Shown here piece by piece: positions 11,437-64,000 of a DNA stretch of 64,000 bases. The stretch's first letter is position 1, and each line of letters opens with the position of its first letter. The position numbers and the translations under genes are program-made. The DNA is from a virus. The notes below the pieces were generated by a model that had not been told where the DNA came from, ran no database searches, and was given only the letters and a program-made list of their open reading frames with translations. The DNA is taken from positions 1-64,000 of the IMG/VR virus record IMGVR_UViG_3300035034_000707. One strand, given 5' to 3'.

Positions 11437-11452
11437 GTGCATCTAAGATCAT
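11437..11452. repeat. 16-bp site GTGCATCTAAGATCAT
   Basis: 8 nt before a -35 box. Confidence 0.8.
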
Positions 11453-11460: not shown

Positions 11461-11489
11461 TTGACGAACGGTTCTCTAGGGGATAGATT
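11461..11489 (+). promoter_or_regulatory. conserved promoter TTGACG-N17-TAGATT
   Basis: Motif family; leader at 11496. Confidence 0.85.
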
Positions 11490-11524
11490 ACTCTTACACC
11501 ACAACCGGCCTTGGAGCGACGATC

Positions 11525-11953
11525 ATGGAAAACCTCAACGAAGCACTCAAAGACCTCCGCACCACAATCGCGGAAGACGGCTTTACCGCTACCCTAGTAG
11601 AAGAAATCGCCAACGATTGGGATATCAAGCCCATCCTGCTGGCCCGGAAATTCGAAGAAAAGCACGGCAAGCCCGCCTCGGAATTCTCAGCGGCCAGCCA
11701 GACAACGCTTCGGAATAACGCTATCGAAACCGCAATGAAGGCAGTGGTCGCCAACCGCGCCCGCTTTTCAGATACCCCCGGCGTCCCCGAAGTTACAGGG
11801 ATGGCTTTCACAGCAGACGGCGAAGAGTATATCGCGGTCGCTATCGCAACTGGTGGCCTTCGCGCCGTTAAGGTTTCGAACGGCAAATGGTGGAAATTCG
11901 GGAATTCAGCCCGGGAAGCTATCGCAGCCGCCCACCGTTACAACCTTATTTAA
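11525..11953 (+). CDS. hypothetical early-type protein inserted in the head module
   Basis: Own promoter and leader. Confidence 0.8.
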   Translation: MENLNEALKDLRTTIAEDGFTATLVEEIANDWDIKPILLARKFEEKHGKPASEFSAASQTTLRNNAIETAMKAVVANRARFSDTPGVPEVTGMAFTADGEEYIAVAIATGGLRAVKVSNGKWWKFGNSAREAIAAAHRYNLI

Positions 11954-11956: not shown

Positions 11957-11972
11957 GTGCACCTAAGATCAT
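11957..11972. repeat. 16-bp site GTGCACCTAAGATCAT
   Basis: 7 nt before a -35 box. Confidence 0.8.
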
Positions 11973-12008: not shown

Positions 12009-12043
12009 GCTATCACACCACGACCTAAACCTTGGAGAACGAA

Positions 12044-12304
12044 ATGACCTATAACAGCGCAGCCACCATCGCCAAAGCAACCAAAGCCGCCGAAGCCGTC
12101 AGGGCGCTTACCAACACCTCGGTTACGCTCAAGGACGATGGATACCGCCTCACAATCTGCATCGGCTACACAGACGACGAATTGGGGAACGCCGCATACC
12201 GCGCAGCCCAAGCGATCATGGGTTCCGATATGGGATGGGGTGGCCGGGTAGAAATGGCGGCAGATATCTCAGGCGGCGGCATTACAGTCGTAGGGCGCAT
12301 CTAA
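12044..12304 (+). CDS. hypothetical early-type protein inserted in the head module
   Basis: Own promoter and leader. Confidence 0.8.
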   Translation: MTYNSAATIAKATKAAEAVRALTNTSVTLKDDGYRLTICIGYTDDELGNAAYRAAQAIMGSDMGWGGRVEMAADISGGGITVVGRI

Positions 12305-18248: not shown

Positions 18249-21200
18249 ATGTCTCAAGACATTACGTTTATCCTGAAAGCGAAAAACGAAGCTGCCCGCG
18301 CCACGAAGCAATTTCGCGACGATATGGGTAAGGCCGGGAAGAACACGAAACAGCTTGCCGCCGAAGCGAAGAAAGCCAAGGCTGAAACCAATAAGCTGGG
18401 GGGTATGGCTAAACGCCTGCCCGCCTCTTTCAACAAGACCACCCTAGCAGCTAAGGCCCTCAAGGTTACGATGAAGGGCATCGCTGGCCTTATAGGGGGC
18501 CTAGCCCTTGGCATGTTGTTCCAGAAAGGCATTACCAGCGCCCGGGAATTCAAGGCTTCGCTGGCGGAAGTTGGGACCCTTCTGAAAGGGACGCCCACCC
18601 AGATCAAAGCCCTGACCTCTGCATCTAACGATCTGGTCAAGGTCTTTGGAGGATCACGCGCAGACCAGCTAACGGCGTTCTATCAGGCTATCTCTGCGGG
18701 CGCTTCTGATGTTGGGGCGGCTACTGAGATTGTTGAACAGGCCAACAAGCTGGCTATCGGTGGTGTCACCGAAGTCTCCACAGGGGTCGATATCCTGACC
18801 ACCGTGGTCAATGCCTATGGGAAGGACGTGATTACTGTTCAAGAGGCCTCAGACGCGCTCTTCGTGGGTATGAAGGCCGGTAAGACGACCGTTGGGGAAC
18901 TGTCGGCCCAGCTTGGATCGGTTATCCCCATTGCCAAGGCGGCGGGTGTAGGGTTCGATGAACTTGTAGGCGCTGTCTCCGCACTGACGACACAAGGTCT
19001 TACGACTGCCACCGCAGCCCGTGGTATCAGGGCTGTCCTCTCGGAAGTGATCAAGGCCGGTTCGGATGAAGGATCACGCGCGGCCAAGACCGCCAAGGCC
19101 CTCGGACTGGAATTTAACGCGGCAGCAATCCAAGCAAAAGGTTTGTCTGGGTTCCTAGCCGATGTAGTGGACAAGACAGGTGGCAGCGCCGATGCTATTA
19201 CAGCCCTCTTTGGTTCTGTCGAAGCGGCCACCGTAGCTTTCTCGTTCGCGGGCGGGGCCGGTAGCAAGTTTGCCGACGTTCTGAAAGACCTCGCAGAAAA
19301 GGCCGGGGCCACCGACGAAGCCTATCAGAAGGTCGCAGACAATCTGGATGCCCGGCTCGGGGTAGCGGTGTCCCGTCTGTTGGCCGTGCTGGAAAGGTTT
19401 GGCGCTGTCCTCCTGACCGTGCTGGTCCCGGCAGTCGAAAAATTCGCCAGTGCTCTGGAATTCCTTGAAGACAATATCGACATGATAATCATTATTATCA
19501 GCGTCCTTGCAATCAAGACGATCCCCCTTCTCTTCCGAATTATGGTCAACCTTCTGGGGGTCATTGGTCAGTTTACCGGCGCGGCGGCGCTATTTACTGG
19601 GTTCGGTGCCTCAGTCGCAGCGGCTATGGCCGTAGCCCGCACGGCTTTCTTGGTATTCTATAGCACGTTGGCCTCAGGTCAGGGGATCATGGCTGCGTCT
19701 CGGGCTGGGATACTCACACTCACGGCCTCCTATGCCGGGGCCGGGGTGGCGGTAAAAGCGTTTAGCCTTGCTCTCCGGGCCATCCCGGTTGTCGCAGCGG
19801 TAGCGGCTATCGCCAGCCTGTTGACGATTATGAAGGACGTAAAGGGGTCCTTGGGTGCCGCTCAGGACGCGCTATCGGACTATGTGAACTCATCGAAGGA
19901 AAGCGATATTGCGCTGAACCTCTTCAATGAGCAGAAGACACAAGCTAATCTGGACGCCTTTAAGGCCACGCTGGAAACAAACAAGAACGATATCATCAAT
20001 CTGATCGAAACGACCCGCGCCGTGCTTGAGGCTCAACAGGTTATGGGTATCAACATCGGAAGCGCGAAGGCCGTCGCAAGTCTTGAGGCAAGCCTAGCTA
20101 CGCTGGAAGGTCAGCTTGGGGCTAATGCCGCAGCTTTCGAGCGGGCGGCGGTGGCTCAGGCCGCACTTACGGAACAGGATAAGATAGGCCTGACGACCAC
20201 GCGGGAACAGGTTCAGGCCCAGCGGGAAGTCTTCGAAGGTATCAGTCAGCAGGGAGTGCCCTCTCTTGCCACGCTCCGGGAAACCTACGGGGACTTGGCC
20301 GAAGGCATCCGAGACAACATCACCCTGTCCAACGAATTTGCGGCGGTTCAGGCTCAACTCAGCTTCGCCAATAGGATTGCAGAGATATCGACCCTGCTCG
20401 ATACCCTTAATCTTTCAAACCTTGAACTGCTCGAATACAACGACCGCCTTCTTGCCATACAGCAGAATGGGTCGATGGCTGAACAGGCGGTTGCGGCGGG
20501 CGAACTTGCGCGGGAAATTATCGAAGCCAACGGGGGTATGGACAAACTCAACGATGAGACGCTCAAGGTCGTTGGTCAACTGCTGGCTGCTGCAAACGAA
20601 GCGGCCTCAGTGGCAGCGAACTCTTCCAGCGCCTCGGGGGCTATCGCGGGCGCGGCGAACAATGCGGCCAGCCTAGCCAACAACATGGCAGCGGCGGCAA
20701 ACGCTGCGATAGCTTTTGTGTCCAATCTGGGCGCGGGGGTGGCGGCGGCGAATAGCCAACTGGCCGGGGCTAAAGCTGCAATAAGCGCGGCGCAGAGTGG
20801 GGGGACCAAGGGGGATGTGGCCATTGCCCGCAGGGAGGCTGAGGTACGATCCTCCCCCGACTTTCAGAAGAGCCTCACAGGACCTCAGGGCTTACAGGAC
20901 CTCGCCAAAAACAATCTGGCAAAGGAATTGGAAGCCGTTGGAATTGCCGCCGAAGCTGCGGAACTGAACGCCAAAGCCCTCAAGGTTACAACCGATGCTC
21001 TCCTTTCGGGTGGAAGTAGTGGTAGCAGCGGTGCCAGCGGGGGGGCTAGCGGGGGTTCCTCGGGCGGTACACAAACCGCGTCCGAAGACGGGGCCTCTGG
21101 CGGCGATAGCGCCTTGGGCAAGGCCATATCCAGCATCACGGGGAAATACCGTGAAATGGCTGAGACGGCGGGTATGACGGCCAAGGAGATTGAAAACTAC

Positions 21201-21878
21201 CGCATCCAGCAGGAACTCCTACAAGCGGCGCAACAGGATGGTGTGGCCCTATCCCCCGAAATCGTGGCCTCTGTGCTGGCCCAGAAGGATGCGTTCGAAC
21301 AAGCGGCGCTATCCGCTCAGACATTTGCGGCTGGGGCGAAGCAGGGTTTCCAAGACTTTGCAGATAGCGTTCAGACGAACATGGAGTTTGCGCGGGACTT
21401 TACCCAAAGCGCCTTCCAAGGGCTGTCCGGTGTAATCTCCGACTTTGTAATGACTGGCAAGGCGGACTTTGTTGGCTTGTTCAAAGACCTCCTTGGGCAG
21501 ATATCAAAATTCCTCGCCAACCAATTGGTTATGCAACTCTTCGGCGGCGGCAAGGGTGGCGGTGGCCTCTTTGGCGGCGGTGGTGGTGGTGGCGGCTTCC
21601 TGAGCGGCCTCTTTGGGGGCTTCCTTGCAGAGGGCGGACCCGCGCAAGCAGGCAAACCTTACATCGTAGGGGAAGAGGGGCCAGAGTGGTTCGTGCCTAA
21701 ACAGTCGGGGACGGTTGTACCCAATGGGCAGCAACCTGACTTCGCTGGCAACCGTGAGCCGATAAATGTAAACTTCAACATCACGACCCCGGATGCGGAC
21801 AGTTTCCGCCGCTCTCAAGGTCAGATCAAAGCGAACATGAGCCGGGTGCTGTCTGACGCTGATCGCCGCAATAACTAA
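18249..21878 (+). CDS. tail tape measure protein
   Basis: 1209 aa, Ala-rich; TP901-type core; C-terminal AEGGP..YIVGEEGPE. Confidence 0.95.
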   Translation: MSQDITFILKAKNEAARATKQFRDDMGKAGKNTKQLAAEAKKAKAETNKLGGMAKRLPASFNKTTLAAKALKVTMKGIAGLIGGLALGMLFQKGITSAREFKASLAEVGTLLKGTPTQIKALTSASNDLVKVFGGSRADQLTAFYQAISAGASDVGAATEIVEQANKLAIGGVTEVSTGVDILTTVVNAYGKDVITVQEASDALFVGMKAGKTTVGELSAQLGSVIPIAKAAGVGFDELVGAVSALTTQGLTTATAARGIRAVLSEVIKAGSDEGSRAAKTAKALGLEFNAAAIQAKGLSGFLADVVDKTGGSADAITALFGSVEAATVAFSFAGGAGSKFADVLKDLAEKAGATDEAYQKVADNLDARLGVAVSRLLAVLERFGAVLLTVLVPAVEKFASALEFLEDNIDMIIIIISVLAIKTIPLLFRIMVNLLGVIGQFTGAAALFTGFGASVAAAMAVARTAFLVFYSTLASGQGIMAASRAGILTLTASYAGAGVAVKAFSLALRAIPVVAAVAAIASLLTIMKDVKGSLGAAQDALSDYVNSSKESDIALNLFNEQKTQANLDAFKATLETNKNDIINLIETTRAVLEAQQVMGINIGSAKAVASLEASLATLEGQLGANAAAFERAAVAQAALTEQDKIGLTTTREQVQAQREVFEGISQQGVPSLATLRETYGDLAEGIRDNITLSNEFAAVQAQLSFANRIAEISTLLDTLNLSNLELLEYNDRLLAIQQNGSMAEQAVAAGELAREIIEANGGMDKLNDETLKVVGQLLAAANEAASVAANSSSASGAIAGAANNAASLANNMAAAANAAIAFVSNLGAGVAAANSQLAGAKAAISAAQSGGTKGDVAIARREAEVRSSPDFQKSLTGPQGLQDLAKNNLAKELEAVGIAAEAAELNAKALKVTTDALLSGGSSGSSGASGGASGGSSGGTQTASEDGASGGDSALGKAISSITGKYREMAETAGMTAKEIENYRIQQELLQAAQQDGVALSPEIVASVLAQKDAFEQAALSAQTFAAGAKQGFQDFADSVQTNMEFARDFTQSAFQGLSGVISDFVMTGKADFVGLFKDLLGQISKFLANQLVMQLFGGGKGGGGLFGGGGGGGGFLSGLFGGFLAEGGPAQAGKPYIVGEEGPEWFVPKQSGTVVPNGQQPDFAGNREPINVNFNITTPDADSFRRSQGQIKANMSRVLSDADRRNN

Positions 21879-35741: not shown

Positions 35742-36456
35742 TATCGGGAAGAAAGTTGGCGGCGTCTGGTTACCAAAGGATGAACAGCACCTGACAGAGT
35801 GGATGGTCAAGAGCAAAGGCCGTTTTGAAAAGGATGGTGTTTTGACCTATCAATGGGCCAAGCAGTCCTTTGCTCAGGACGCCATGATAAAATATATCCC
35901 TGACTATGGCACCCGATCCTTCATAGACGTGGGCGCGCATGTTGGGCTTTGGTCAATGTGGTGGTCCTGCCTGATGGCCGGGACCATAGCCTTTGAGCCT
36001 ATCCCGGAAATGCGGGAACTCTACCGGGCCAACATGCAAGGCCGGGGCAGATATCTCCTGCTATCTGAGGCCCTAGGCCACCAGCCGGGCTGTTTGGAAT
36101 TGTCTTTTAACAAGGAAAACACGGGCAACACTCACGCTACCAGACAGAAAAATAAGGGCCTGCCTATCATTCAGGTGGCCATGACCACTCTGGACCTAAA
36201 AATGAGCGTCATGCCCAACTCCCCCGCGCCCGGTGTGATCAAGATCGACTGCGAAGGTTTTGAGGAATTGGTGGTAAGGGGGGCAGAGGCTACCATCCGT
36301 GAGCACCGCCCCCTCCTGATAGTGGAGCAGAAAAAGGGATCAGACTACTATGGGATGTCCCCACTTGGGGCAGTAGAGGTCCTGACCAAATGGGGCTTCA
36401 AGGTAGTCAAAACCATGTCAGGCGATCACATTATGGTCCATGAGGTATACCTATGA
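35728..36456 (+). CDS. FkbM-family methyltransferase
   Basis: IDVGAHVG, AFEP, IKIDCEGFE..V..GA. Confidence 0.9.
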   Translation: MVLDDIGKKVGGVWLPKDEQHLTEWMVKSKGRFEKDGVLTYQWAKQSFAQDAMIKYIPDYGTRSFIDVGAHVGLWSMWWSCLMAGTIAFEPIPEMRELYRANMQGRGRYLLLSEALGHQPGCLELSFNKENTGNTHATRQKNKGLPIIQVAMTTLDLKMSVMPNSPAPGVIKIDCEGFEELVVRGAEATIREHRPLLIVEQKKGSDYYGMSPLGAVEVLTKWGFKVVKTMSGDHIMVHEVYL

Positions 36457-37028
36457 AGACGATCACGGCGAAGTACCTGCGCACACAAGAAGCGCTTCAC
36501 GAGGGGGCCTATGGTTCCTCCGGGCATTACTGGCTCGGCCACGTCGCGGAAATCTGTGACGTCCTCAACTGCCGGTCAGTGCTGGACTACGGCGCTGGCA
36601 AGGGGACGCTTGGACCCTACCTCAAACGGCTGGGTATTGAATACGCCGCGTATGATCCGGTGACGTTCCCCAAGAAGCCCTCAGGCCGCTTCGATCTGGT
36701 GGTATGCCTAGACGTTATGGAACATATCGAAGAGGCGTTCGTCCCCGCAGTTATGGCAGAGATATGGGGCTATACCAACATCGCCATGTTCTGCGTTGTG
36801 AATACCCGGGCTTCCTCCAAGACCTTGAGCGACGGGCGGAACGCACATATCACGGAACGCCCCTATGAATGGTGGCGCGATAATTACCTTTCGGAAGGGT
36901 GGAAGCCCGCGCGGGTTCGACAGACAGCGGACGGCTTTGATATGGTATCCACGCGGACCCCACCCCCAACGGGGGTCAGCCCTATCAGCCGGGCGCAGCT
37001 ACACACTTTGAGAGGGATCAGGAAATGA
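36453..37028 (+). CDS. class I SAM methyltransferase
   Basis: VLDYGAGKG, YDP, FDLVVC.DVMEH. Confidence 0.88.
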   Translation: MKTITAKYLRTQEALHEGAYGSSGHYWLGHVAEICDVLNCRSVLDYGAGKGTLGPYLKRLGIEYAAYDPVTFPKKPSGRFDLVVCLDVMEHIEEAFVPAVMAEIWGYTNIAMFCVVNTRASSKTLSDGRNAHITERPYEWWRDNYLSEGWKPARVRQTADGFDMVSTRTPPPTGVSPISRAQLHTLRGIRK

Positions 37029-37837
37029 CCAGACGGGACACCTATTTTCTAGGTTATGATGCGCGCGAACACGAAGCCGCCTGCATAGCGGGGTACTCAA
37101 TCCTGCGCCGGGCGAACCGCAGATCGCAGATATTCCTGATCGAACATCAGATGCTCCGGGCGCTCAAGAAGTTTGACAGGGAATGGCTCACGACTGCCAC
37201 AGGGCAGACCTATGACACACTGGATCATAAGCCCTTCTCTACGGCCTTCTCTCATTCCCGCTTCCTCGCGTTCACGCTGGCTCGTGATCTTAGGTGCACC
37301 GGCCCCTGTATGTTTATCGACTGTGACTGGTTGTTCCTCAATGACCCGGGCGAACTCATGGCACAGCAAGAGAAGAACCCTGACAAGATTGGGGTCGTGT
37401 CCCGTCACCGTGAAATCGAAGAAGGCTCGACCAAGATGGATGGTATGGTTCAAGAGGCGTATCACCGGAAACTGTGGTCAGCCCTCTTTACCTTCATGCC
37501 TACTCAGGAGTGGGCCGCGCTCTTCGACGTTCAAGCGGTTAACAACCGGACGGGCCGCGCCCTTCACGGCTTCCTTGGATTGGATAAAAATCGCTTCTGG
37601 GAAGTGGACCCGCGCTGGCACTATATCCCCTCGCTGGACCCGGCACAGGAGGCCCCCGGGGGTATTCACTACTCCGAATTCAGCCCTTGGTTAAACCCTG
37701 AGCGGTATGCCGAATTCCCGAAAGCCTTTGACGCATGGACTGATGAGAAATCTGCTTGGCTGGAATACGCGGCCAAGCGCGGCGCTCTGGAAACTTGGGA
37801 TGATCTGAACACGGCCCTCTTGGCGGCGGCGGCTTGA
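37025..37837 (+). CDS. GT-A fold glycosyltransferase
   Basis: GYD.RE, ST.FS.SRF, FIDCD (DxD), K.WS, IHY. Confidence 0.8.
   Translation: MTRRDTYFLGYDAREHEAACIAGYSILRRANRRSQIFLIEHQMLRALKKFDREWLTTATGQTYDTLDHKPFSTAFSHSRFLAFTLARDLRCTGPCMFIDCDWLFLNDPGELMAQQEKNPDKIGVVSRHREIEEGSTKMDGMVQEAYHRKLWSALFTFMPTQEWAALFDVQAVNNRTGRALHGFLGLDKNRFWEVDPRWHYIPSLDPAQEAPGGIHYSEFSPWLNPERYAEFPKAFDAWTDEKSAWLEYAAKRGALETWDDLNTALLAAAA
37284..37299. repeat. 16-bp site GTGATCTTAGGTGCAC
   Basis: Intragenic (glycosyltransferase). Confidence 0.75.
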
Positions 37838-37862
37838 CGAACAAGGTAAACGCCTATATATA
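37834..37862 (+). promoter_or_regulatory. sRNA promoter TTGACG-N17-TATATA
   Basis: Motif family. Confidence 0.75.
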
Positions 37863-37864
37863 CT

Positions 37865-37951
37865 CACACCTAGCGCTGTTTCTCCAAGGCAGTCGCTTGG
37901 TGGTGAAACTGGACGGGCGCAGGTTGTGGTGAGCTAGCGCCCGTCCTTTTT
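37865..37951 (+). ncRNA. putative small antisense RNA targeting the conserved early-gene leaders
   Basis: Own promoter (37834); two hairpins with loops CTCCA and GTGGTG; terminator T run; no ORF; complementary to CCTTGGAGA and CACCACAACCT. Confidence 0.75.
37911..37951 (+). terminator. intrinsic terminator of the sRNA
   Basis: Perfect 10-bp stem GGACGGGCGC/GCGCCCGTCC followed by TTTTT. Confidence 0.85.
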
Positions 37952-37961
37952 AGTTTTGGGG

Positions 37962-37990
37962 TTGACAAACGGTCCTAAAGATTATATACC
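37962..37990 (+). promoter_or_regulatory. conserved promoter TTGACA-N17-TATACC
   Basis: Motif family; ACCACAACC at 37997. Confidence 0.8.
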
Positions 37991-38020
37991 TTCGGGACCA
38001 CAACCGAAAGGAAATCCCAA

Positions 38021-38764
38021 ATGCTTGTGCAGTCTGGCGGCAATAATGTATACGCCGTCCTCGCCAATACTGACGAATTCGAACTGTCGATTACGCCGAC
38101 GCTGACTATCCAATCCACTACCGTAATCCTCGCGCTGCGGTGCCGGTTCAAATCCCTTCAAACAGATTACTTTGACCCCATGATGGTCCCCAAGTCTGTT
38201 CTGGTGTCGGGTATTGAGCGGTCGAAGAATACTCTGCGCGGCACCCTGATGCTGAATACTGGCTTCACCGTGGAAAAGGTTGGCTCCGGCTTCCCAGATA
38301 TCGTTGCCAAGAAGCTGGTCAGCGAGGTCTCGGGCATACTCCTGCCCATTTCGGAAGAGCAAGAGAAGGCGGTGCTCTATATCAATCACCTGAGGGACGA
38401 CTTTGTTACAGACTTTGCGAAGCTGGTTACCTCAGTCATTGCTCCGATATCCCCAGCCAAAAACTTCTCAAAGGTGCCCGCCCTCCTGAGCCTCTTCGAT
38501 ATGAATATCTATATGGCAGCGGCGGCGGAACACGGCCCAGAGGTGCCCTTCAAGGTGGTCCCGGAACCGGAACCGGCAGGCACCGGGGCCTCAGTAAAGA
38601 AACTGGACGTGAGTGGGGATTACGAACCTGACCCAGAGAAAATACCTGTGGATAACTCTGAAAAGCCGGTTGACAAACCCGCTACAGGTACGGAAGGGTC
38701 TAAGGTTCATCTACTCGGACAGGCCCCCGCCCTCACACCGGCGGAACCTGAAACCACCGACTAG
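38021..38764 (+). CDS. hypothetical protein
   Basis: Own promoter, ACCACAACC leader, AAGGA RBS. Confidence 0.8.
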   Translation: MLVQSGGNNVYAVLANTDEFELSITPTLTIQSTTVILALRCRFKSLQTDYFDPMMVPKSVLVSGIERSKNTLRGTLMLNTGFTVEKVGSGFPDIVAKKLVSEVSGILLPISEEQEKAVLYINHLRDDFVTDFAKLVTSVIAPISPAKNFSKVPALLSLFDMNIYMAAAAEHGPEVPFKVVPEPEPAGTGASVKKLDVSGDYEPDPEKIPVDNSEKPVDKPATGTEGSKVHLLGQAPALTPAEPETTD

Positions 38765-38790
38765 CCGGGGCGGTTTTACCACCGCAGTTA

Positions 38791-38820
38791 GCACGCCCCT
38801 TGAACCGGGCGTGCTTTTTT
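38791..38820 (+). terminator. intrinsic terminator directly before the initiator RBS
   Basis: GCACGCCC/GGGCGTGC stem followed by TTTTTT. Confidence 0.8.
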
Positions 38821-38834
38821 ATTGGAGTTACCCC

Positions 38835-39794
38835 ATGATAGACACGCGCGTTCTGACCCATACGCCTACTCAGGCGAACCTACTCAGGTTAATTCTAAAC
38901 CTTCACAAGACCTCAACGATACTCCGGGATGGGAAGCCTTACCTCGCCATTCAGCTAGATAAGATGGCCAGTATGGTGGGTCTAAAGGCCCGTTCATCTG
39001 TAAGTCGGGCATTAAATTGGCTAGAGGCTCAGGGTATAATTCAGATTATACGCGACCGATGGAACCGCTCCCCCCGGCTTTATATCCGCCCGCTTATCAA
39101 GACCCGCGCAACGTCAAACGAACGTCAAACGAACGTCACACGTTGCGCGGACGCAACGTCCTGTCTTAAACCTTCTGAAAAACTTAAAACCTCAAACACG
39201 GCAGCACCCTCCGGGACTGCCGGGATCACGGTGGATACAAGTATCCCTGAAAATTCAGGAAGGTTGCGCGGAAATCTGGCCGGGGCGGCTGACAGGATCA
39301 AAGAAAAGAAAGACACCGCGCGCGCGCACGTCCGGGATCAACAGCCTAAACCCAAGATCGTCGCTCACGCTTGGGTCCGCATCCTCGGGGAATATGGGTA
39401 TCTTGGGTTCGACCCGAATGATGGAAAGCACCTGAAACATATCAGCAAAACGCTATCTCTCTTCGACAGCCCTAACGTAGGGGCCTTTGAAGTCGAACTG
39501 GAACGCCGCATAAGCGCATGGCAGGAACATCGCCCGAAGGCTCTGGGTAAGGCCGCGCCGCATCCTTGGGCAATCAATCGCACCGACCCCCTATTCCAGA
39601 AACTCGCCACCGTTCAAGACGACGAAGACTATACCATCCCCGGTATGGCTCCGCTGATACCAGATGCGATAATTCAGTCACCCCCAGCAGTTGACGAATT
39701 AAAAACGGGTTCCCAGAATGGGCCTGACGTGGTAACCCCGCCAAAGAAGGGTGGCATGATGCACCTCTTCAAAAAAGGCAAGGACGCCAAGTGA
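38835..39794 (+). CDS. putative replication initiator (N-terminal wHTH, lambda O-like layout)
   Basis: MASMVGL..RSSVSRAL.WLE..GII; internal iterons; upstream of loader and helicase. Confidence 0.7.
   Translation: MIDTRVLTHTPTQANLLRLILNLHKTSTILRDGKPYLAIQLDKMASMVGLKARSSVSRALNWLEAQGIIQIIRDRWNRSPRLYIRPLIKTRATSNERQTNVTRCADATSCLKPSEKLKTSNTAAPSGTAGITVDTSIPENSGRLRGNLAGAADRIKEKKDTARAHVRDQQPKPKIVAHAWVRILGEYGYLGFDPNDGKHLKHISKTLSLFDSPNVGAFEVELERRISAWQEHRPKALGKAAPHPWAINRTDPLFQKLATVQDDEDYTIPGMAPLIPDAIIQSPPAVDELKTGSQNGPDVVTPPKKGGMMHLFKKGKDAK
39104..39199. repeat. iteron array plus AT-rich tract (putative origin)
   Basis: AACGTCA(A/C)ACG x3 (39110-39142) inside an 11-bp inverted repeat, then an A-rich stretch. 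Confidence 0.7.
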
Positions 39795-39800
39795 GGCACC

Positions 39801-40391
39801 ATGAACACAGAAGCACACAGCCTTGCTCCCCCGGGGGCCTATAACGCCTTTGCCCCCGGCAAGCTGCGGCAGGGTATCCACGACACATTGATCAAAGAAA
39901 TAGATCGTATCGCGCACGATGCCGGGATCACTCCGGGCGACGTAACCGGGGCCACCTATCACATGACCGATACTGAACTGGATTATCTCAAGGGCTTTCG
40001 TCGCACGGAAGAGACGGGAAAACTCGGGATCATCTACGTTGGACAGCACGACCCTGCGGTAGCCCTCCGATGCCGAACGGTATGCGGCGCGCTCCTGCGT
40101 AACTTCATCACGGCGCGGCTTATCGTCCGTGAAGAACTCGTGTCCGAATTGTTCGACAACCGGCGTCAGCCTAATGCAGACCTCGTGGCCGTCCCAGACT
40201 TCGCATACAGGGATGCTCCCCCGGCCACGCGCCGGGCGCTATCCTCGTGGCTGATGGGCCGTATCTCACGGGGCAGGCAGACGGTGCTCGGGCTTCCCGA
40301 CAAGACAGCGATCAGTGATATCTTTGGGGCGGAAGCGCCCCTTTACACGAAACACTTCGCCGTCAAACACGGTGCGCAATCCCCAAAGTAG
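39801..40391 (+). CDS. DnaC/IstB-like helicase loader (degenerate P-loop)
   Basis: Position; AGI, G.IY.G, DLVAV.D, R...G..T pattern. Confidence 0.55.
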   Translation: MNTEAHSLAPPGAYNAFAPGKLRQGIHDTLIKEIDRIAHDAGITPGDVTGATYHMTDTELDYLKGFRRTEETGKLGIIYVGQHDPAVALRCRTVCGALLRNFITARLIVREELVSELFDNRRQPNADLVAVPDFAYRDAPPATRRALSSWLMGRISRGRQTVLGLPDKTAISDIFGAEAPLYTKHFAVKHGAQSPK

Positions 40392-41734: not shown

Positions 41735-41770
41735 GGCCTCATAACCACCACACTCGAAAAGGATCACCAA

Positions 41771-42259
41771 ATGCCTAAGATTGGAAATATCACGCTGCCT
41801 ACCGTGACGTTGAGCGGACAGGACCCGGCAGACGTTGCCGCACTTCTCAAGGATAAGAACATGCCCTTGGAGGCGATGGTAGAAGTTGCCATCTATTGCA
41901 AGCGCGAACGCGAAAAGGCAGAGGCCCTAGCGCCTATCGAAGACCTGATGCGCGCCCGCCTCAAGAAAGCCTATGCTGCCATGCCGCCGGAAAAGCGGGT
42001 AACCACGCGCACCGAAGTTGGGATGCTGACCTACACGGCGGAAGCTGAAACGATCACGCTCAAGGACCGGGACAAGACGGTCGAAATGCTGACTGATGAA
42101 CAAATTCGGATTACATACAAGCCTGATCTAAAGGCGCTCAAAACGATTATGAAACCGGCAGAATTCAATCGGCACGTCACGCGCGGCAAAAGTGATCCTA
42201 AGATCACCTTACGGGATAACCGGGCCAGTGATGAATACTCCGAACTGGACGACTTCTAA
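41771..42259 (+). CDS. hypothetical protein (Gam-like, tentative)
   Basis: Own promoter; helical N-half; KPD.KALK motif. Confidence 0.7.
   Translation: MPKIGNITLPTVTLSGQDPADVAALLKDKNMPLEAMVEVAIYCKREREKAEALAPIEDLMRARLKKAYAAMPPEKRVTTRTEVGMLTYTAEAETITLKDRDKTVEMLTDEQIRITYKPDLKALKTIMKPAEFNRHVTRGKSDPKITLRDNRASDEYSELDDF
42192..42207. repeat. 16-bp site GTGATCCTAAGATCAC
   Basis: Intragenic, just before the primase gene. Confidence 0.8.
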
Positions 42260-46714: not shown

Positions 46715-47824
46715 AAGCTAACTGATGCAGTGTCCACGATCACCAAAGCATACGGCAAGACCGCAGGGGGACTGGGCTTCCGGTTCCCCTCCTTCGCCAG
46801 ACTGCCCACAGGTATCTTGACGCTTGACCTAGCACTTGCTGGGGGAATACCGATGGGGGCCGTGTCCCTCATTTATGGAAATGAAAGTAGTGGGAAGACC
46901 TCCCTTGCGCTCCGCCTAGCCGCGCAGTTTCAGAAGAGGCACGGGAAGGGTAAGAACGCTCGGAAGGTTGTCTGGCTGGACGTGGAAAACGCATGGGATG
47001 AGGAGTGGGTACGACTTCACGGGGTTGACCCGGATCAAGTCTACCTGTTTCGACCAACCACGGCGGAAGAGGCGGCGGACGTAGCCGACGAAGTGGCGAT
47101 GGCACAGGACGCGGGCCTGATCATCGTGGACTCCATTGCGGCCATGTCCTCTATCGACCAGCTAGAGAAGTCCGCAGAGAAGGTTGTGGTGGCCGGTGCG
47201 GCGAAGCCATCGACTACCCTACTGCGCAAGATAGGCGCGGGCATTACCGAACACGCAAAGGCTGGTCAGACCCTAACCGTCATTTATATCAATCAGCCTC
47301 GTATGAAAATCGGGTTTCATATGGGTAACCCGGAATTCCTGCCCGGCCCCGTTATGCAGAACTTTCAAGCGTTTTTGAAACTACGCCTGACGGGCAAGGC
47401 TATCCTCAAGGAAAAGATATCCCCCATCCCGATCTACTCAGACAACACGGCTAAGATCGTCAAAAAGAAATTCCCATGTATCAGGCAGTCCTGTGAATGG
47501 CAGACGATGCTTTACCCGTGGGAACATGCCGGGAAGAAACACTGGCCGCTGGAAGTCAACAACCGGACACATGCCGAAGCCCTCTTGGAAGACCTCGACT
47601 ACCTCAGCAAGAGCGCGACCGTGAAAGGGAAGTGGGACCTGTTCGACATCGAACACCCAGACGCCGGGGAACTGCTGCAATTCCCGACGAAGACGGCGGC
47701 GGTAGACTGGGCCGTGGAACGGTATGATGCTCTCACTAAATTCCTGATTGACGACCTCCTTCTGCTCTACAAAGACGATATCAAGAAGCAGCTAGAGGAA
47801 GCCGAGAAAGCAGGCCACAAGTGA
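46709..47824 (+). CDS. recA: RecA-family recombinase
   Basis: TG...LDLAL.GGIP, YGNESSGKT, D.E, IIVDSIAA, INQ.R.KIG. Confidence 0.9.
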   Translation: MHKLTDAVSTITKAYGKTAGGLGFRFPSFARLPTGILTLDLALAGGIPMGAVSLIYGNESSGKTSLALRLAAQFQKRHGKGKNARKVVWLDVENAWDEEWVRLHGVDPDQVYLFRPTTAEEAADVADEVAMAQDAGLIIVDSIAAMSSIDQLEKSAEKVVVAGAAKPSTTLLRKIGAGITEHAKAGQTLTVIYINQPRMKIGFHMGNPEFLPGPVMQNFQAFLKLRLTGKAILKEKISPIPIYSDNTAKIVKKKFPCIRQSCEWQTMLYPWEHAGKKHWPLEVNNRTHAEALLEDLDYLSKSATVKGKWDLFDIEHPDAGELLQFPTKTAAVDWAVERYDALTKFLIDDLLLLYKDDIKKQLEEAEKAGHK

Positions 47825-49120: not shown

Positions 49121-49641
49121 GGGTATGTGGCTGCGACCCGGACCTGAACGGCGGCTTTGCCGTGATTGACACGCAGACCCTAGAAATAGTCTCTCTGCGC
49201 CTCATGCCGCTCTTTGTCCCCCCGGTAAAGGGCAAGAGACGCATCGACGCACAGGGGGCCTTTGAACTTCTCAAGGAAGCGCGCCGCGTTGGGGCTGAAT
49301 ATGTCGCGCTGGAACAGGCCGTGGTCAAGCCTCAGATATCTTCCAAAGGCCCGGCGATGATGGGCAGCGTTCATACCGTTCATCAGAACTATGGGATGCT
49401 GCGCGCGCTATGTGAAATCATGTTTAGCAGAAGTCGCGTGATTGACGCTTGGCCCTCTACATGGAAAAAGGATATGGGTCTAACCTCGGACAAAAACCTG
49501 TCACTGGAAAAAGCGATAGCCCTCTACCCCTCTCATACCTCACTCTTTGCCAAGAAAAAGAACGTAGGTCTGGCTGAGTCCCTGTTACTGGCTCGGTGGG
49601 GCGCAGAAAAAGTGATCTTAAGATCATCGGGGGTTGACTAA
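49117..49641 (+). CDS. RuvC-like Holliday junction resolvase
   Basis: GCDP...GG.A, LE, YG, P.TWKK, AESLL.A. Confidence 0.8.
   Translation: MRVCGCDPDLNGGFAVIDTQTLEIVSLRLMPLFVPPVKGKRRIDAQGAFELLKEARRVGAEYVALEQAVVKPQISSKGPAMMGSVHTVHQNYGMLRALCEIMFSRSRVIDAWPSTWKKDMGLTSDKNLSLEKAIALYPSHTSLFAKKKNVGLAESLLLARWGAEKVILRSSGVD
49612..49627. repeat. 16-bp site GTGATCTTAAGATCAT
   Basis: Near-perfect palindrome 6 nt before a -35 box. Confidence 0.8.
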
Positions 49642-49662: not shown

Positions 49663-49695
49663 ACGAATACCACTAAGCAACAAAGGACAATCAAA

Positions 49696-50862
49696 ATGAA
49701 CCCTATCATCTACAAAGAGGCGGTCGAAGCACTCGCCATCCCGAAACTCACCGCGTTCCTGAAACTCGTTACAGATACCGTCGAAATCGAAGGCTGGTCG
49801 AAGCTGCGTGCCCCGGAAAAGCGGGCTAACATGCTCGAAGCCCTTGAACAGTCCTCGGAACTCCGCAAGGAATTTGTCGTGTTCTACGGGGAAGAAAAAG
49901 GCACGGACACCGACTATTCCGAATGGGAAACATCGGACCTCCCCGAAGTATCAGAGACGCCTCAGGAACCGGCCCCTGAGCCACCGACCGGCACAGATGT
50001 CAGCAAAGCCACCGCCTACACTCCGACACAGGACACACCCACCGCGTTCGTTGAAGGCGCTTTTGAAGTGATCGTATCAGAGGTCGCTGGGCTGGACGCC
50101 GTACAGTCCAAGGCGAACCTTCACGAAGCCGAAGACCGGATGCAATTCGAACATATCCGCATCGGCGCGCTGCTGGCGCATATCCAGAAAGCAGACCTTT
50201 ACATCCAACTCGGGTATGACAACCTCCGGGAATTCCTTCACGCGGAAACCACGATGGACTACCGCAAGGGCGTTCAGTTGATCAAGAATTTCAACACGGT
50301 CAAGGAACTTGGCATCCCGGCGAAAGACCTGACCGGCGTGACATGGGCGGCGCTCCGCCATATCGTCCCTATTCTCACGGCAACGAATTACAAGAAGTGG
50401 CTCGACGCCGCACGGTCCAGCACCCACATCACGCTGATCGAACAGGTCTACAAAGAAAAGACCAAGCAGGCTGGGGCACTCCCCGCTCCGGGTGATACCG
50501 CCACGGGCGAAGCTATCCCGGAACAGGAGAAACTCACATCGAAGGTGTTCAACGTCTACGCAGAACAGAACGCCAATATCACAGCGGCTATCGACAAGGC
50601 CAAGAACGCGGCCAACGTCAACAGCATGGGCGCGGCCTTGGATATCATCGCATCGGCCTATATAGGGTCCCCGGCCTCGGATGCCACGATAGGCGCGATT
50701 ATGCCCGATACCTCAGTGGAGGGCCTTACCAACGTCTTCTCAAAGATGGCGAACGATGATCCGGCCAACGCAATTATGGTGGTCTTCTCCGCACTCGAAG
50801 CGGTATGGCCCACCGTAGAAGTCGCAGTCACGTTCCCACCCAACTATAATGGGACCACCTAA
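49696..50862 (+). CDS. hypothetical protein
   Basis: Own promoter, AAGGA RBS. Confidence 0.8.
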   Translation: MNPIIYKEAVEALAIPKLTAFLKLVTDTVEIEGWSKLRAPEKRANMLEALEQSSELRKEFVVFYGEEKGTDTDYSEWETSDLPEVSETPQEPAPEPPTGTDVSKATAYTPTQDTPTAFVEGAFEVIVSEVAGLDAVQSKANLHEAEDRMQFEHIRIGALLAHIQKADLYIQLGYDNLREFLHAETTMDYRKGVQLIKNFNTVKELGIPAKDLTGVTWAALRHIVPILTATNYKKWLDAARSSTHITLIEQVYKEKTKQAGALPAPGDTATGEAIPEQEKLTSKVFNVYAEQNANITAAIDKAKNAANVNSMGAALDIIASAYIGSPASDATIGAIMPDTSVEGLTNVFSKMANDDPANAIMVVFSALEAVWPTVEVAVTFPPNYNGTT

Positions 50863-50949: not shown

Positions 50950-50982
50950 GGGCCGATCACCACAACGCAAAAGGCTAACCCC

Positions 50983-51603
50983 ATGAACCTCTTCGTGCTA
51001 GATACAAACCCGCTTACCGCCGCCACAGCGCTCAATGATAAACACGTCCTAAAAATGATCCTAGAGACAGCGCAACTCTTGGACGGCGGGACCCGCCCGA
51101 TTATGCAAGCGATACAGCCCAACCAGACGCATGAGATAGTTGGTATCCCAGCCAGCCAGAAGAACAATCCCTGCATCCTATCCGCTTCCTCTGAGATAGT
51201 CTGGGACTATGCCCATCGTCATTTTATCGGGCTACTCGGGGAATACCGCTACCGCTATGGCAAGAGGCACTCCTACGATACTGAGGATATGCGCCGCAAA
51301 CTCACAGAGCGGGGCAACAGCGCACGAAACGGCATGAGCGGGGCGGGGTTCTACCTAGCGATGCCAGATGCCCATAAGGGGCGCGATAAACGGGGTCTCG
51401 CCTCACTGGCACAAGCAGTCGTCAGCTACCGCAGCTACTACTCCCGTGAAAAGACTTCCTTTGGAACGGTCCCCAAACCTGCTACATGGAAACGCCGCGC
51501 TCCACCGGTATGGCTCACCCGGACGATGAATGACTTGGACTATCAACGTAACCTGTCCAGCGATGGGCACTATCATTTTTATCAAAAGAAGGTAACGGCA
51601 TGA
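50983..51603 (+). CDS. pyrimidine-dimer glycosylase (DenV)-superfamily protein
   Basis: MNLF.LD.NP...A....DKHV.KM.LE.AQLL, EY..RYGK.H, AMPD, YR.YY...K, W..R..P.W. Confidence 0.8.
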   Translation: MNLFVLDTNPLTAATALNDKHVLKMILETAQLLDGGTRPIMQAIQPNQTHEIVGIPASQKNNPCILSASSEIVWDYAHRHFIGLLGEYRYRYGKRHSYDTEDMRRKLTERGNSARNGMSGAGFYLAMPDAHKGRDKRGLASLAQAVVSYRSYYSREKTSFGTVPKPATWKRRAPPVWLTRTMNDLDYQRNLSSDGHYHFYQKKVTA

Positions 51604-60714: not shown

Positions 60715-60747
60715 GTTCTAACACCACAACCACTCTTGGAGATAGCA

Positions 60748-62619
60748 ATGTCACAGTATTGGGCCGCAACTACAGGCTTCCCGCACACCGCCCCGCCACC
60801 GGATAAAGCCATCTATGGTGGTAAGGGTGCGGGGCTTATCGAAATGGCGCAGGCACAGTTACCCGTTCCCCGCGCGCTGGTCATTACGACCCTCGCATGG
60901 CAGTATTACAAAACCCATAACAAGCTGCCAGACGAACTCATTGATCGAGTTGCATGGTTCGTCAGTGACGACAAAGACTGCATGTTTAGTGTTCGCTCCG
61001 GCGCTCCAGTATCCATGCCGGGGATGATGGACACGGTTCTGAATGTTGGAGTAACAGTAGAACTGGATGATATGTATCCCGGCGCGTTTCACCGCTTTGC
61101 TACATCGTGGCTAGAGATCGTCAAGGGAGTGCCAAAGGCACGGGTAAAGACCCTCTCCGAAATGATAGAGGCCCGCGCAGACAGCAGCGAACGGCGGTTT
61201 TCTCTGATGGCAGGGGTAATCAAAAGCGCAGAGGGCCTCGACATTCCCTTAGCGCGCACCGAACAGGTGCTGGCCTGCATCGAAGCCGTATTCCGCTCAT
61301 GGGATACCCCACGCGCTCGGGCTTATCGCAAGATGCACGATATCCCGGAAGATATGGGCACAGCCTGCGTGGTACAAAAAATGGTAATGGGGACAGCCAA
61401 GGGCCTCTCGGGGTCAGGCGTCATGTTTACCCGGAACCCGGCCACGGGTGAGAACGAAATGAAAGGTGAGATAGCCTTCAACGCTCAAGGTGAGGAAGTT
61501 GTATCAGGTGAAATAACGCCCATGTCCCTAGACGATCTGGCACATTCCGGCAACCCATATTGGGAAAACCTGCACTCACAGCTAGGCAGTCTCTGCTCCA
61601 CACTGGAAGCCCATTTCGGGGACGTTCAGGACATTGAATTCACGGTAGAGGATGGGACCCTCTACGTCCTTCAAACCCGCACGGCTAAGATGTCAGCCCG
61701 CGCCCGTATAGAAACGGCGGTGGCCCTTTGCGCCTCCATGCCCTCCCCCCAGCGCTACAGCTACCTCAAGGCCCGTCTCACGCGCCGCATGGTAGAGCAA
61801 ACGCGCATCGCGGTAGTCGATACCGACATGAAACCGACTATGACCGGTTTGCCCGCAGCCCCGGGCGCTATCTCAGGCAGGATTGTCTTTCGCACGACGC
61901 CGATAGCCAAGATTGGTAAGGACTGTATTTTGGTCGCAGAGGATACATCGCCAGACGATTTCCCTATCATGGCGAAGTGCGGCGGCATCCTAACCAAGAC
62001 CGGGGGCTTTACCTGCCACTCGGCGGTGGTCGCTCGGGGCATCGGGGTTCCGGCAGTAGTTGGGGCCGGTGATCTTACGTTCACTAAGCAGGGCTGGGTC
62101 ACTATAGGTAGCACCCAGATACAAGAGGAAAGCTATATCACGCTAGATGGGACCTTAGGTCAGGTATTTACTGGAGAACACCCGGTCAAGAAACAGCAGC
62201 CCCCACGCTCCATTTATGAGGCGCTTCACTATATTGTAAAAAGCAAGGGTATTGAGGTCGCGTCAGAGGTATACTACTACGATTGCGGGATTGGCTACGA
62301 TGTAGTGCTACCCCTCAACCCAGCCGATCTGGATCAGGTAGAAACCCAGCTAAAACGCATGGAAAAGATGAAAGAGAAGGGCAAGAATGTCGTCCTCGCC
62401 TTCGAAATGCAGGGCATGGGGGAAGACCTTTTCAGCGATACGGCAGAGACGCTCTTTCAAGGTATCGCAGACAACTTTGCTGGTGACATCGCCGGGACCA
62501 CTATAGCCTACGGTGTCAGTCACGCTATGGCTCCTAAAGTCACCGAAATGCTAGGGGTATCGGTCAATCTCAAAAATGAGATAAGCATCCTTGACCTCCT
62601 TGACCTGCTAGGGGGTTAA
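60748..62619 (+). CDS. PPDK-like protein: ATP-grasp + phospho-His domain, lacking the pyruvate-binding barrel
   Basis: GGKGA, SVRSGA..SMPGMMDTVLN, TRNP.TGE, DIEFT, LQTR, GGFTCHSAVVARG; only 623 aa. Confidence 0.88.
   Translation: MSQYWAATTGFPHTAPPPDKAIYGGKGAGLIEMAQAQLPVPRALVITTLAWQYYKTHNKLPDELIDRVAWFVSDDKDCMFSVRSGAPVSMPGMMDTVLNVGVTVELDDMYPGAFHRFATSWLEIVKGVPKARVKTLSEMIEARADSSERRFSLMAGVIKSAEGLDIPLARTEQVLACIEAVFRSWDTPRARAYRKMHDIPEDMGTACVVQKMVMGTAKGLSGSGVMFTRNPATGENEMKGEIAFNAQGEEVVSGEITPMSLDDLAHSGNPYWENLHSQLGSLCSTLEAHFGDVQDIEFTVEDGTLYVLQTRTAKMSARARIETAVALCASMPSPQRYSYLKARLTRRMVEQTRIAVVDTDMKPTMTGLPAAPGAISGRIVFRTTPIAKIGKDCILVAEDTSPDDFPIMAKCGGILTKTGGFTCHSAVVARGIGVPAVVGAGDLTFTKQGWVTIGSTQIQEESYITLDGTLGQVFTGEHPVKKQQPPRSIYEALHYIVKSKGIEVASEVYYYDCGIGYDVVLPLNPADLDQVETQLKRMEKMKEKGKNVVLAFEMQGMGEDLFSDTAETLFQGIADNFAGDIAGTTIAYGVSHAMAPKVTEMLGVSVNLKNEISILDLLDLLGG
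62069..62084. repeat. 16-bp site GTGATCTTACGTTCAC
   Basis: Intragenic (PPDK-like); identical to the 4394 copy. Confidence 0.75.
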
Positions 62620-62634: not shown

Positions 62635-62907
62635 ATGTTCATAGTAAACGCACAAGAGGGTCAGTCCATTCTGGTTGGGGACCGTATCATCCGCCCGGTG
62701 TCCGTGCTACGTCCGGGCGTTGTCTCATTAGAAATAGAAGGGGAACCCGGAACCATCCTAATTGGATGGGACCGAAAGCTGGCGATATTCCCAGAGGTTC
62801 TGGTAACAGTCAGCCGCACGGCGGGCTTTTCTCAACGGATCAAGTTTCTGTTCGATGCGCCGAAGTCTATCCGCATCCGGGAACTGCCCTATGACCCACC
62901 CGAATGA
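62635..62907 (+). CDS. CsrA/RsmA-like protein (apparent tandem repeat of the fold)
   Basis: G.SI.VGD at the N-terminus; EV.VTV......RI...DAPKSI.I.E at the C-terminus. Confidence 0.5.
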   Translation: MFIVNAQEGQSILVGDRIIRPVSVLRPGVVSLEIEGEPGTILIGWDRKLAIFPEVLVTVSRTAGFSQRIKFLFDAPKSIRIRELPYDPPE

Positions 62908-63832: not shown

Positions 63833-63864
63833 GGGAGAACACCATAAGCCCCTTGGAGGATACA

Positions 63865-64000
63865 ATGATTACCCTAGATTATTTCAAGACCCACCCGCTC
63901 AGGGTCGCCAAATCGCAGGCTGATGTTACTATTGGAAGTCTTCTGACTGCTGAAAAAGCCACTATCCTAGAGCCTGCCATGCACCCGTCTATGGGGGCCT
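63865..64000 (+). CDS. partial hypothetical early protein
   Basis: Promoter, leader and TTGGAGG RBS; runs off the window. Confidence 0.7.
   Translation, partial: MITLDYFKTHPLRVAKSQADVTIGSLLTAEKATILEPAMHPSMGA

Follow-up and report, generated by a model that had tools for sequence, protein, structure and literature searches.

What is made from a short stretch of phage DNA that carries its own promoter and terminator and no open reading frame (ORF), and on what would the product act? The question is raised by positions 37834 to 37956 of the IMG/VR virus record IMGVR_UViG_3300035034_000707. The window analyzed here is the first 64 kb of this 85,129-bp record (97% complete), and coordinates are positions in the window unless stated otherwise. 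All genes of the phage (G000) are on the plus strand, and it is a siphovirus with a tape-measure protein (18249-21878), a gene transfer agent (GTA)-like tail host-specificity protein, a DnaB-like helicase, and a terminase. The nearest isolate-phage proteins are at most ~39% identical and belong to Caulobacter, Rhodobacter, Roseobacter/Ruegeria, and Brevundimonas phages and to Alphaproteobacteria phage PhiJL001; therefore, G000 is likely an uncultured phage of an alphaproteobacterium. We propose that the unit probably encodes a trans-acting antisense small RNA (sRNA) that occludes the ribosome binding site (RBS) on a genome-wide set of the phage's own mRNAs.

A sequence-only reading had described the unit as free of ORFs, transcribed from its own promoter, and closed by an intrinsic terminator, with two hairpin loops exposed in the RNA. 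This description was borne out by a consensus promoter, two hairpins, and a U-tailed terminator. Sequence and pattern checks returned every position that had been given, and the predicted structure agreed with the proposed fold, with the loop CUCCA in hairpin 1 and a terminator loop containing GUGGUG. The elements of the unit are as follows.

37833-37839, plus strand: −35 element CTTGACG (TTGACG from 37834); it contains the TGA with which the upstream glycosyltransferase-like gene (37025-37837) ends
37857-37862, plus strand: −10 element (C)TATATA, after a 17-nucleotide (nt) spacer
37866-37953, plus strand: predicted sRNA of ~85 to 88 nt, with the 5′ end placed by promoter spacing and the 3′ end by the U tract
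37867-37902, plus strand: hairpin 1, with the apical loop CUCCA at 37882-37886
37881-37889, plus strand: anti-RBS element UCUCCAAGG (DNA TCTCCAAGG), the exact complement of the leader element CCUUGGAGA
37899-37905, plus strand: GGUGGUG, located partly in the hairpin 1 3′ arm and partly in the linker; its complement CACCAC stands at the 5′ end of the leaders
37911-37946, plus strand: hairpin 2, the stem of the intrinsic terminator, with 10 G-C-rich pairs, a weak inner helix, and an apical GUGGUG
37921-37931, plus strand: anti-5′-end element AGGUUGUGGUG (DNA AGGTTGTGGTG), situated in the terminator loop; the leaders start with its complement, CACCACAACCU
37947-37951, plus strand: terminator U tract UUUUU

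The unit is syntenic in six phages (G000, G002, G004/L054, L068, L069, and L070/71), where it lies between the glycosyltransferase-like gene and the gene that occupies 38021-38764 in G000 ("MLVQSGG" gene). The relatives considered in this work are labeled G001, G002 (L044), G003, G004/L054, L068, L069, and L070/L071. The overlap of the stop codon with TTGAC was present in all six homologs. The sRNA promoter fits the alphaproteobacterial sigma-70 promoter consensus, which is CTTGAC-N17-CTATAT; the −10 elements of the homologs read TATATA, TATATA, TATAGG, TATACC, and TATAGA, with spacers of 15 to 19 nt. The RNA folds with a minimum free energy (MFE) of −45.2 kcal/mol (z = −4.5), and none of 200 shuffled sequences folded equally well. 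The reverse complement of the G000 unit folded worse by 8.9 kcal/mol. Across the six homologs, the plus strand was favored over its complement by 8.4 to 19.4 kcal/mol, with z values of −2.2 to −4.5 for the plus strand and of about 0 for the complement in three of the six. Because the plus strand folds better in every homolog, it is the functional RNA strand. A T-rich tail after hairpin 2 was likewise found on the plus strand only. Both loops are accessible: 8-nt windows over them open at ~1.9 to 2.0 kcal/mol, among the lowest values in the RNA, and only the linker window GUGAAACU opens more easily (1.4 kcal/mol). By element, the opening energy was 1.9 kcal/mol for UCUCCAAGG and 2.0 to 4.8 kcal/mol for AGGUUGUGGUG.

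Other roles for the unit were considered and rejected. A small peptide product was dismissed, as the unit has neither an ATG nor a Shine-Dalgarno (SD) sequence and no reading frame is conserved among the homologs. A minus-strand leader of a minus-strand gene was dismissed as well, given that no promoter or conserved ORF lies there and that the RNA folds on the plus strand. DNA-level operator sites were rejected on the grounds that both motifs are inverted solely here, differ in spacing, and are located in RNA loops.

What the two loops would recognize became apparent from the phage's mRNA leaders. A scan of the G000 genome with TTGACNAAC returned 27 plus-strand sites, most of which were followed by a G-run, a TAnnnT-type −10 element, and, 6 to 7 nt on, an A that opens ACACCACAACC...(C)CUUGGAGA...AUG. 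The ACCAC-type leaders (n = 16) share the 5′ consensus ACCACAACC, with 12 to 16 of the 16 agreeing at each position, and the UGGAG-type leaders (n = 14) share the SD context CCUUGGAGA, with C at position −2 in 12 of 14. Leaders are 26 to 37 nt long and nearly unstructured (MFE of −1 to −6 kcal/mol over the first 50 nt). A second class, which heads replication genes, carries ACCACAACC only and has AAAGGA as its SD sequence. The sequence-only reading had listed 10 leaders with both elements and 4 with ACCAC only; all were found at the listed places, each 6 to 7 nt past a TTGACNAAC-type promoter with the exception of that at 4706. The leaders of the window are as follows.

1507-1537, plus strand: two-element leader, from +1 to the ATG of a 67-amino-acid (aa) ORF
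1770-1801, plus strand: two-element leader, upstream of a DUF2958 protein gene
4452-4484, plus strand: two-element leader
4706-4731, plus strand: leader-like element with both motifs, within an operon and lacking its own promoter
6419-6451, plus strand: two-element leader
6929-6958, plus strand: two-element leader
11496-11527, plus strand: two-element leader in the structural module, directly after the major capsid gene
12015-12046, plus strand: two-element leader in the structural module
60721-60750, plus strand: two-element leader, upstream of a dikinase-like gene; the G002 ortholog also bears a leader
63839-63867, plus strand: two-element leader; the G002 ortholog also bears a leader
37997-38023, plus strand: 5′-element-only leader (ACCACAACC, SD AAAGGA), upstream of the gene adjoining the sRNA
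41741-41773, plus strand: 5′-element-only leader in the replication module
49669-49698, plus strand: 5′-element-only leader in the replication module
50956-50985, plus strand: 5′-element-only leader in the replication module

Beyond the window, five more leader-bearing units were located at genome positions 65433, ~74750, 76975, ~81595, and 85032. The proposed regulon of about 10 genes was therefore real in its leaders but larger than had been stated, with ~15 two-element leaders in the 85-kb genome; at least 5 further G000 units carry the 5′ element only. Most genes tagged by a leader are small unknown ORFs from regions that lack conservation in G002. In the dikinase region, three orthologous units are tagged in both G000 and G002. 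The description of the targets as early genes was not supported, as two units (11525 and 12044) lie in the structural module and three head the conserved dikinase region; for many of the tagged genes, an early class is plausible.

The central claim, that one loop is complementary to the RBS element of the leaders and the other to their 5′ end, in antiparallel order, was upheld by the sequence, the fold, and a scan of 5′ untranslated regions (UTRs). The 11-mer occurred 10 times with at most one mismatch (0.88 expected) and the 9-mer 6 times (0.66 expected), and the reverse complements of the two adjoin each other only at the sRNA unit. In an unbiased 7-mer scan of the RNA against 127 predicted 5′ UTRs, there were two peaks only, and they coincided with the two loops: RNA positions 16 to 18 were complementary to 11 to 13 of the 127 UTRs and positions 57 to 60 to 8 to 13, while most other positions matched 0 to 2. 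A small shoulder (up to 6 UTRs) coincided with the U-tail, whose complement is the AAAGGA-type SD sequence. Plain RNAduplex on whole sequences did not discriminate (all UTRs scored −30 to −50 kcal/mol) and was replaced by the hybrid energy plus the cost of opening the sRNA. With this accessibility-corrected site energy, 14 UTRs reached −12 kcal/mol or lower and 10 reached −14 kcal/mol or lower, with leader genes in the top ranks; the corresponding counts were 0 to 3 and 0 to 1 for shuffled UTRs and 2 and 0 for internal coding windows. Hybrid energies on the leaders were −12 to −16 kcal/mol for loop 1 and −13 to −20 kcal/mol for loop 2. The mRNAs carry the elements in the order 5′-ACACCACAACCU(0-6 nt)CCUUGGAGA-3′ and the sRNA in the order 5′-...UCUCCAAGG...GGUGGUG...AGGUUGUGGUG...-3′. 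The complementarity between loops and leaders is real and far beyond chance.

Exact plus-strand copies of the loop elements were also noticed in coding regions, namely, AGGTTGTGGTG at 47181-47191, where it encodes Val-Val-Val before a Gly-rich stretch, and TCTCCAAGG at 10477-10485. Both are probably coincidences.

The unit thus has the features that are generally expected of a trans-encoded sRNA: it combines its own promoter and a Rho-independent terminator with the lack of a conserved ORF (CTTGAC-N17-(C)TATAxx and a G-C hairpin with a T tract occur in all homologs), and it is predicted to offer an accessible seed that could pair with the RBS of several unlinked mRNAs.

Conservation in the relatives was strongest in the loops. 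The flanking proteins of the unit in the five sequence-distinct relatives are 30 to 60% identical to those of G000; for the glycosyltransferase-like ortholog, identity is 51 to 57% in G002, 55% in G004/L054, 60% in L068, 53% in L069, and 52% in L070/L071. All six units have a −35 element over the stop codon, a (C)TATAxx −10 element, a hairpin 1 tipped by UCUCCA, a GUGGUG-type motif, a G-C-rich hairpin 2, and a T-rich tail; two hairpins are found in each unit, with three in G002. UCUCCA is invariant in all six, and each hairpin 1 bears CUCC(A) in or at its apical loop, although the stems differ in sequence. GUGGUG is invariant in five; G002 has GUAGUG at this place and carries GGUGGUG in its terminator loop. 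GGUUGUGG is retained in four of the six. Stem sequences differ almost entirely between the homologs. Because MAFFT could not register the hairpin-1 stems, pair counts are given for hairpin 2 alone: in five homologs, 87% of the cells are paired, with compensatory changes in 6 of 14 pairs, a level that 0 to 3 of 500 shuffles reached; slid registers scored lower. The stem of hairpin 2 therefore covaries.

The relatives were collected by several routes. A search of IMG/VR with the promoter-plus-leader pattern TTGACNAAC-N24-28-ACACCACAAC returned three phage contigs that share this module, one of which is G002. G004/L054, L068, L069, and L070/L071 were added by protein-guided scans. Alignment-guided protein scans of IMG/VR returned G002 and G004 only, and a protein-guided scan with a single query protein returned no relative. 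The exact two-element pattern gave 28 matches in IMG/VR, all due to chance, and the three-element pattern gave 51, among which G004 alone was genuine. Within the 1.86 Mb of DNA that was retrieved, the composite pattern was confined to the syntenic sites. No isolate phage was matched by 36000-40000 in a Megablast search, and bacterial genomes, when scanned, yielded no prophage relatives, only distant glycosyltransferases (~30% identity). At least 35 further Logan/ENA relatives were recognized by the glycosyltransferase gene (clusters P0002-P0038, six on contigs of 81 to 92 kb); the covariation comparison covers the homologs named above. A short contig from a salt-lake metagenome keeps the 37879-37907 core (29 nt, loop 1 plus GGUGGUG) with 3 differences; it has unlike sequence before the core, and 148 other letters replace 146 after it, which points to a further diverged relative.

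If the loops read the leaders, the two should change together. G002 is a complete 87-kb genome, collinear with G000 (62 reciprocal best hits, 24 to 87% protein identity). Its unit has TTGACA over the stop codon, a 19-nt spacer, TATAGA, and a hairpin with an apical CUCCA in UUCUCCAAAGG, followed by a middle hairpin with GGUUGUAGUG, the terminator loop GGGUGGUG, the next promoter, and the ortholog of 38021-38764 (30 to 32% identity). G000 pairs the leader elements CCUUGGAGA and ACCACAACC with the sRNA elements UCUCCAAGG and GGUUGUGGU. The G002 leaders read (U)UUUGGAGAA or (U)UUUGGAGA(A/U), with U at −2 in 11 of 17, and start with ACCAC(C/A), lacking a conserved AACC. Loop 1 of G002, UUCUCCAAAGG, has A where G000 has G, which pairs with U(−2) instead of C(−2), and its terminator loop GGGUGGUG is the complement of CACCACCC. 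The only G002 7-mers that match several of its own UTRs are those of loop 1 (9 to 14 of 159) and GGGUGGU/GGUGGUG (3 to 4). In a further comparison, the leaders of G003 (from the same sample as G004 and with near-identical promoter spacers) read CACCACAACCC and the G004 sRNA reads GGGUUGUGGUG; G000 pairs ...AACCU with AGGUU.... In the relative G002, the loops thus follow the leader consensus. This co-variation in the direction of base pairing is suggestive, not proven. Covariation of loops and leaders, which the sequence-only reading had named as a check, was found in part: the loop motifs are conserved and the G002 loops match that phage's own consensus, but the events are few.

A number of observations weigh against a role in pairing with the leaders. 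As only two complete genomes could be compared, the co-variation rests on very few independent events, and the G000 loop could still pair with the G002 leaders by G-U wobble. Single-site energies in G002 are at the level of shuffled controls (1 versus 0 to 1 at −12 kcal/mol or lower), and the G002 element GGUUGUAGUG matches none of that phage's leaders; this element (L044 minus strand, ~1412-1380) may be a decaying copy of the loop-2 element, with GGGUGGUG having taken over its role. Loop 2 of L070 has diverged and lost its motif. Loop 1 contains the general anti-SD core CUCC; therefore, part of the UTR enrichment is owed to any GGAG SD sequence. A leader that had simply been inverted would show its elements in the same order, so that the geometry alone is not evidence of function. 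Both loops would, moreover, have to dock at once on sites just 0 to 6 nt apart. RNAalifold proposes pairing of the invariant motifs with each other (CUCCA with UGGUG), which may explain part of their invariance. Finally, the sequencing runs that match the locus are DNA metagenomes of lake water and salt lakes; among the runs searched, no RNA run was listed at the locus, and no transcript, 5′ end, or 3′ end was seen.

One alternative is that the unit is a structured RNA or a terminator-insulator, whose motifs bind a protein (Hfq, S1, or the phage's weak CsrA-like protein) or form the CUCCA/UGGUG pseudoknot; its match to the leaders would then date from an ancestral inverted leader and have no regulatory use. 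In favor of this alternative are the inverted-leader order, the RNAalifold pairing, the background-level G002 energies, and a weak CsrA-like match in the phage. However, we regard it as unlikely. Stems and spacers have decayed at 30 to 60% protein identity, as a relic should have done as well, and the conserved stretches are the most accessible ones and reach 9 to 11 nt, beyond the 4-bp need of internal pairing. The pseudoknot would include a U-U mismatch and be disrupted by the GUAGUG of G002, the loop differences between G000 and G002 go toward each genome's own leaders, and a protein sponge would carry the leader sequence rather than its complement. We also considered that the RNA acts mainly on non-self RNAs, either on host mRNAs through the anti-SD core (shut-off) or on superinfecting related phages (exclusion). 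The CUCC core can pair with any GGAG SD sequence; G001, G002, and G003 share the ACACCAC...UUGGAG leader, which makes cross-targeting possible; and a promoter nearly perfect by the host consensus would suit immediate expression. Nevertheless, ~15 of the phage's own leaders would be targeted equally well, the flanks beyond GGAG match the phage-specific leader, and no integrase or lysogeny module was found, which leaves a mainly non-self action quite unlikely; such an action alongside self-targeting is possible. The suggestion of RNA-based immunity in the sequence-only reading is unlikely as well, given that the 97% complete record yielded no tyrosine integrase.

The position of the unit directly upstream of the replication module in all homologs would also suit a cis-acting leader or attenuator. 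Stop or release at hairpin 2, by nut/put-like antitermination or by leader RNAs that pair with the nascent loop 2, would then control read-through into this module, and the anti-5′-end element does lie inside the terminator hairpin, where pairing could disturb folding. This is very unlikely because a separate strong promoter follows the terminator, ahead of the next gene, in all six phages; in addition, the next gene has its own terminator (38790-38815), and the stem of 10 G-C-rich pairs would cost ~20 kcal/mol to open. Loop 2 would pair with mRNA nucleotides +2 to +12, and 5′-terminal duplexes protect against RNase E and RppH in other bacteria; the RNA could accordingly be imagined as a positive regulator that shields leader mRNAs from 5′-end-dependent decay or recruits translation. 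We consider activation highly improbable because loop 1 covers the SD sequence, which would block 30S binding, and because the leaders are already open, with no inhibitory fold to be relieved.

A 90-aa protein encoded at 62635-62907 underlies the CsrA-like match mentioned above; its score for CsrA (PF02599) is below threshold (E = 0.001; 19.4 bits versus a cut-off of 27). If CsrA-like, the protein could bind the GGA of the UUGGAGA leaders, acting with or against the sRNA.

Antisense pairing with the leaders would proceed as follows. Host RNA polymerase would transcribe the sRNA from the near-consensus promoter CTTGAC-N17-CTATAT and stop at the intrinsic terminator, which is at the same time the 3′ half of the RNA. 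In the infected cell, loop 1 (UCUCCAAGG) would pair with the SD region CCUUGGAGA, and loop 2 (AGGUUGUGGUG), aided or replaced by the linker GUGGUG, would pair with the first nucleotides of the leader, ACACCACAACCU. Both loops would dock antiparallel on one leader, like the double loop contacts of the c4 or OxyS type. Repression is the likely direction because loop 1 covers GGAG and would thereby block ribosome binding. The outcome would be occlusion of the RBS and probably faster decay, with one RNA setting the translation of ~15 dispersed units. Between 28 kb and the sRNA unit, the upstream sequence showed no strong terminator; therefore, the unit probably also forms the 3′ end (3′ UTR) of a long tail/lysis/glycan operon, and this shared 3′ end would couple the accumulation of the anti-leader RNA to late transcription in the course of infection. 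From this we derive a wider scenario, which is tentative and to which we assign slightly less than an even chance. A virulent phage would tag ~15 to 20 units with a private promoter-plus-leader cassette, and one two-loop sRNA, which would double as the 3′ end of the late operon, would read both halves of the tag (5′ end and SD sequence) and silence this class as late transcription rises. Tag and reader would co-evolve, and acquiring the cassette would mean entry into the regulon.

Two promoter flavors were observed. The sRNA unit and its homologs in five relatives have CTTGAC-N17-(C)TATAxx (37833-37862), and the leader mRNAs have GGTTGACNAAC, a G-run, and TAnnnT (e.g., 6384-6412 and 11461-11489). 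The two promoter classes may differ in strength or timing; the sRNA and mRNA promoters differ in −10 context, and therefore the classes may be timed differently. In addition, a 16-bp pseudo-palindrome, ideally GTGATCTTAAGATCAC, lies ~8 nt upstream of the −35 element of many leader-type promoters (4394-4409, 6871-6886, 11437-11452, 11957-11972, and 49612-49627) and also inside some genes (further sites at 17319, 37284 [minus strand], and 56944). It could be the operator of a phage regulator or a weak hairpin and may form a transcriptional layer above that of the sRNA. Among the tagged genes, that at 1799-2140 encodes a DUF2958 protein (PF11171, E = 3.6e-36).

The neighboring gene 38021-38764 is linked to the sRNA in all six phages and has its own promoter and a strong terminator. 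Its product matched no Pfam or PHROG family, and matches in the ESM Atlas were uninformative. The AlphaFold model (pLDDT 78.7) is confident over residues 1 to 170; it had no Foldseek match at E ≤ 0.001, and the best VIA Z was 4.8, with no convincing solved fold. Weak Whirly-like rows (Z 3.6 to 3.8) were observed for this model. On these results, no claim can be made for the product as an RNA partner.

Finally, we compared the unit with known systems. No Rfam family matched at its gathering score in the whole window, and C4 (RF01695) was absent even among the sub-threshold matches (E up to 10) in 37800-38000. The best of these matches was ctRNA_pGA1 (RF00236), with 26.5 bits against a gathering score of 45, so that this model does not apply; the score stems from the overall shape common to antisense RNAs that end in a terminator. 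To our knowledge, the phage riboregulators c4, CI, sar, and OOP each control one neighboring operon. CI RNA of P4 exposes complements of its target, which lies in the RBS region, in its loops. Likewise, c4 RNA of P1/P7 is a small structured phage RNA whose loops pair with a bipartite target around the RBS and block expression (PMC12197685). The two loops described here would pair with a bipartite RBS target in a similar manner, loop 1 with the SD sequence and loop 2 with the 5′ end of the same leader, which makes c4 and CI, by analogy, the closest mechanism. However, c4 and CI act on one operon (ant/icd and the P4 left operon, respectively), which is also their own source, and give prophage immunity, whereas the sRNA has its own promoter and ~15 to 20 dispersed predicted targets in a genome where no lysogeny genes were found. 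At least 14 leaders are spread over 1.5 to 64 kb of the window, with more beyond it. Since neither the model match nor the restriction to a single operon holds, the sRNA falls outside the C4 family. In full-text searches and a review (PMC12197685), we found no phage sRNA that governs dispersed mRNAs of its own phage via a shared leader.

Bacterial sRNAs provide further parallels. The cuckoo/alpha-r14/CcsR sRNAs consist of 2 to 4 adjacent hairpins, in which the stems vary strongly and an anti-SD-like loop motif is conserved, and are thought to repress many mRNAs at the RBS (PMC4615179); NfeR1 is such an alphaproteobacterial sRNA (PMC10746234). The unit resembles them in its probable host class and in its adjacent hairpins with variable stems and conserved loops. 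Unlike in the cuckoo RNAs, which are chromosomal and stress regulated and carry the identical motif CCUCCUCCC in each loop, this motif is found nowhere in the unit. Its loops, CUCCA and GUGGUG, carry two motifs, UCUCCAAGG and GGUUGUGGUG, which would read one phage-specific leader including its 5′ end. In the pairing of OxyS with fhlA, hairpin loops make short kissing contacts with the RBS region of the target. The UCCC loops of Staphylococcus RNAIII pair with the RBS, as described in a passage of PMC4615179. Both of these RNAs are bacterial, and their targets lack the stereotyped promoter-plus-leader module seen here.

With respect to the breadth of its proposed action, the sRNA resembles two proteins of phage T4: RegA is a translational repressor, and RegB is an endoribonuclease that cuts GGAG in early SD regions (PMC3014915). 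In either case, a single phage factor reads a feature that many phage mRNAs share in their translation initiation regions and silences these mRNAs together. In contrast to RegA and RegB, the recognizer in G000 would be an RNA and the tag a longer, private leader. If true, this hypothesis would explain why phages keep stereotyped leaders and would offer a compact, portable tag-and-reader pair with which gene sets of Alphaproteobacteria could be placed under synthetic control. Temporal gene classes of uncultured phages could then be predicted by a rule at the sequence level, namely, to find the leader and then its mirror, and the sRNA would constitute an RNA-only equivalent of T4 RegA/RegB.

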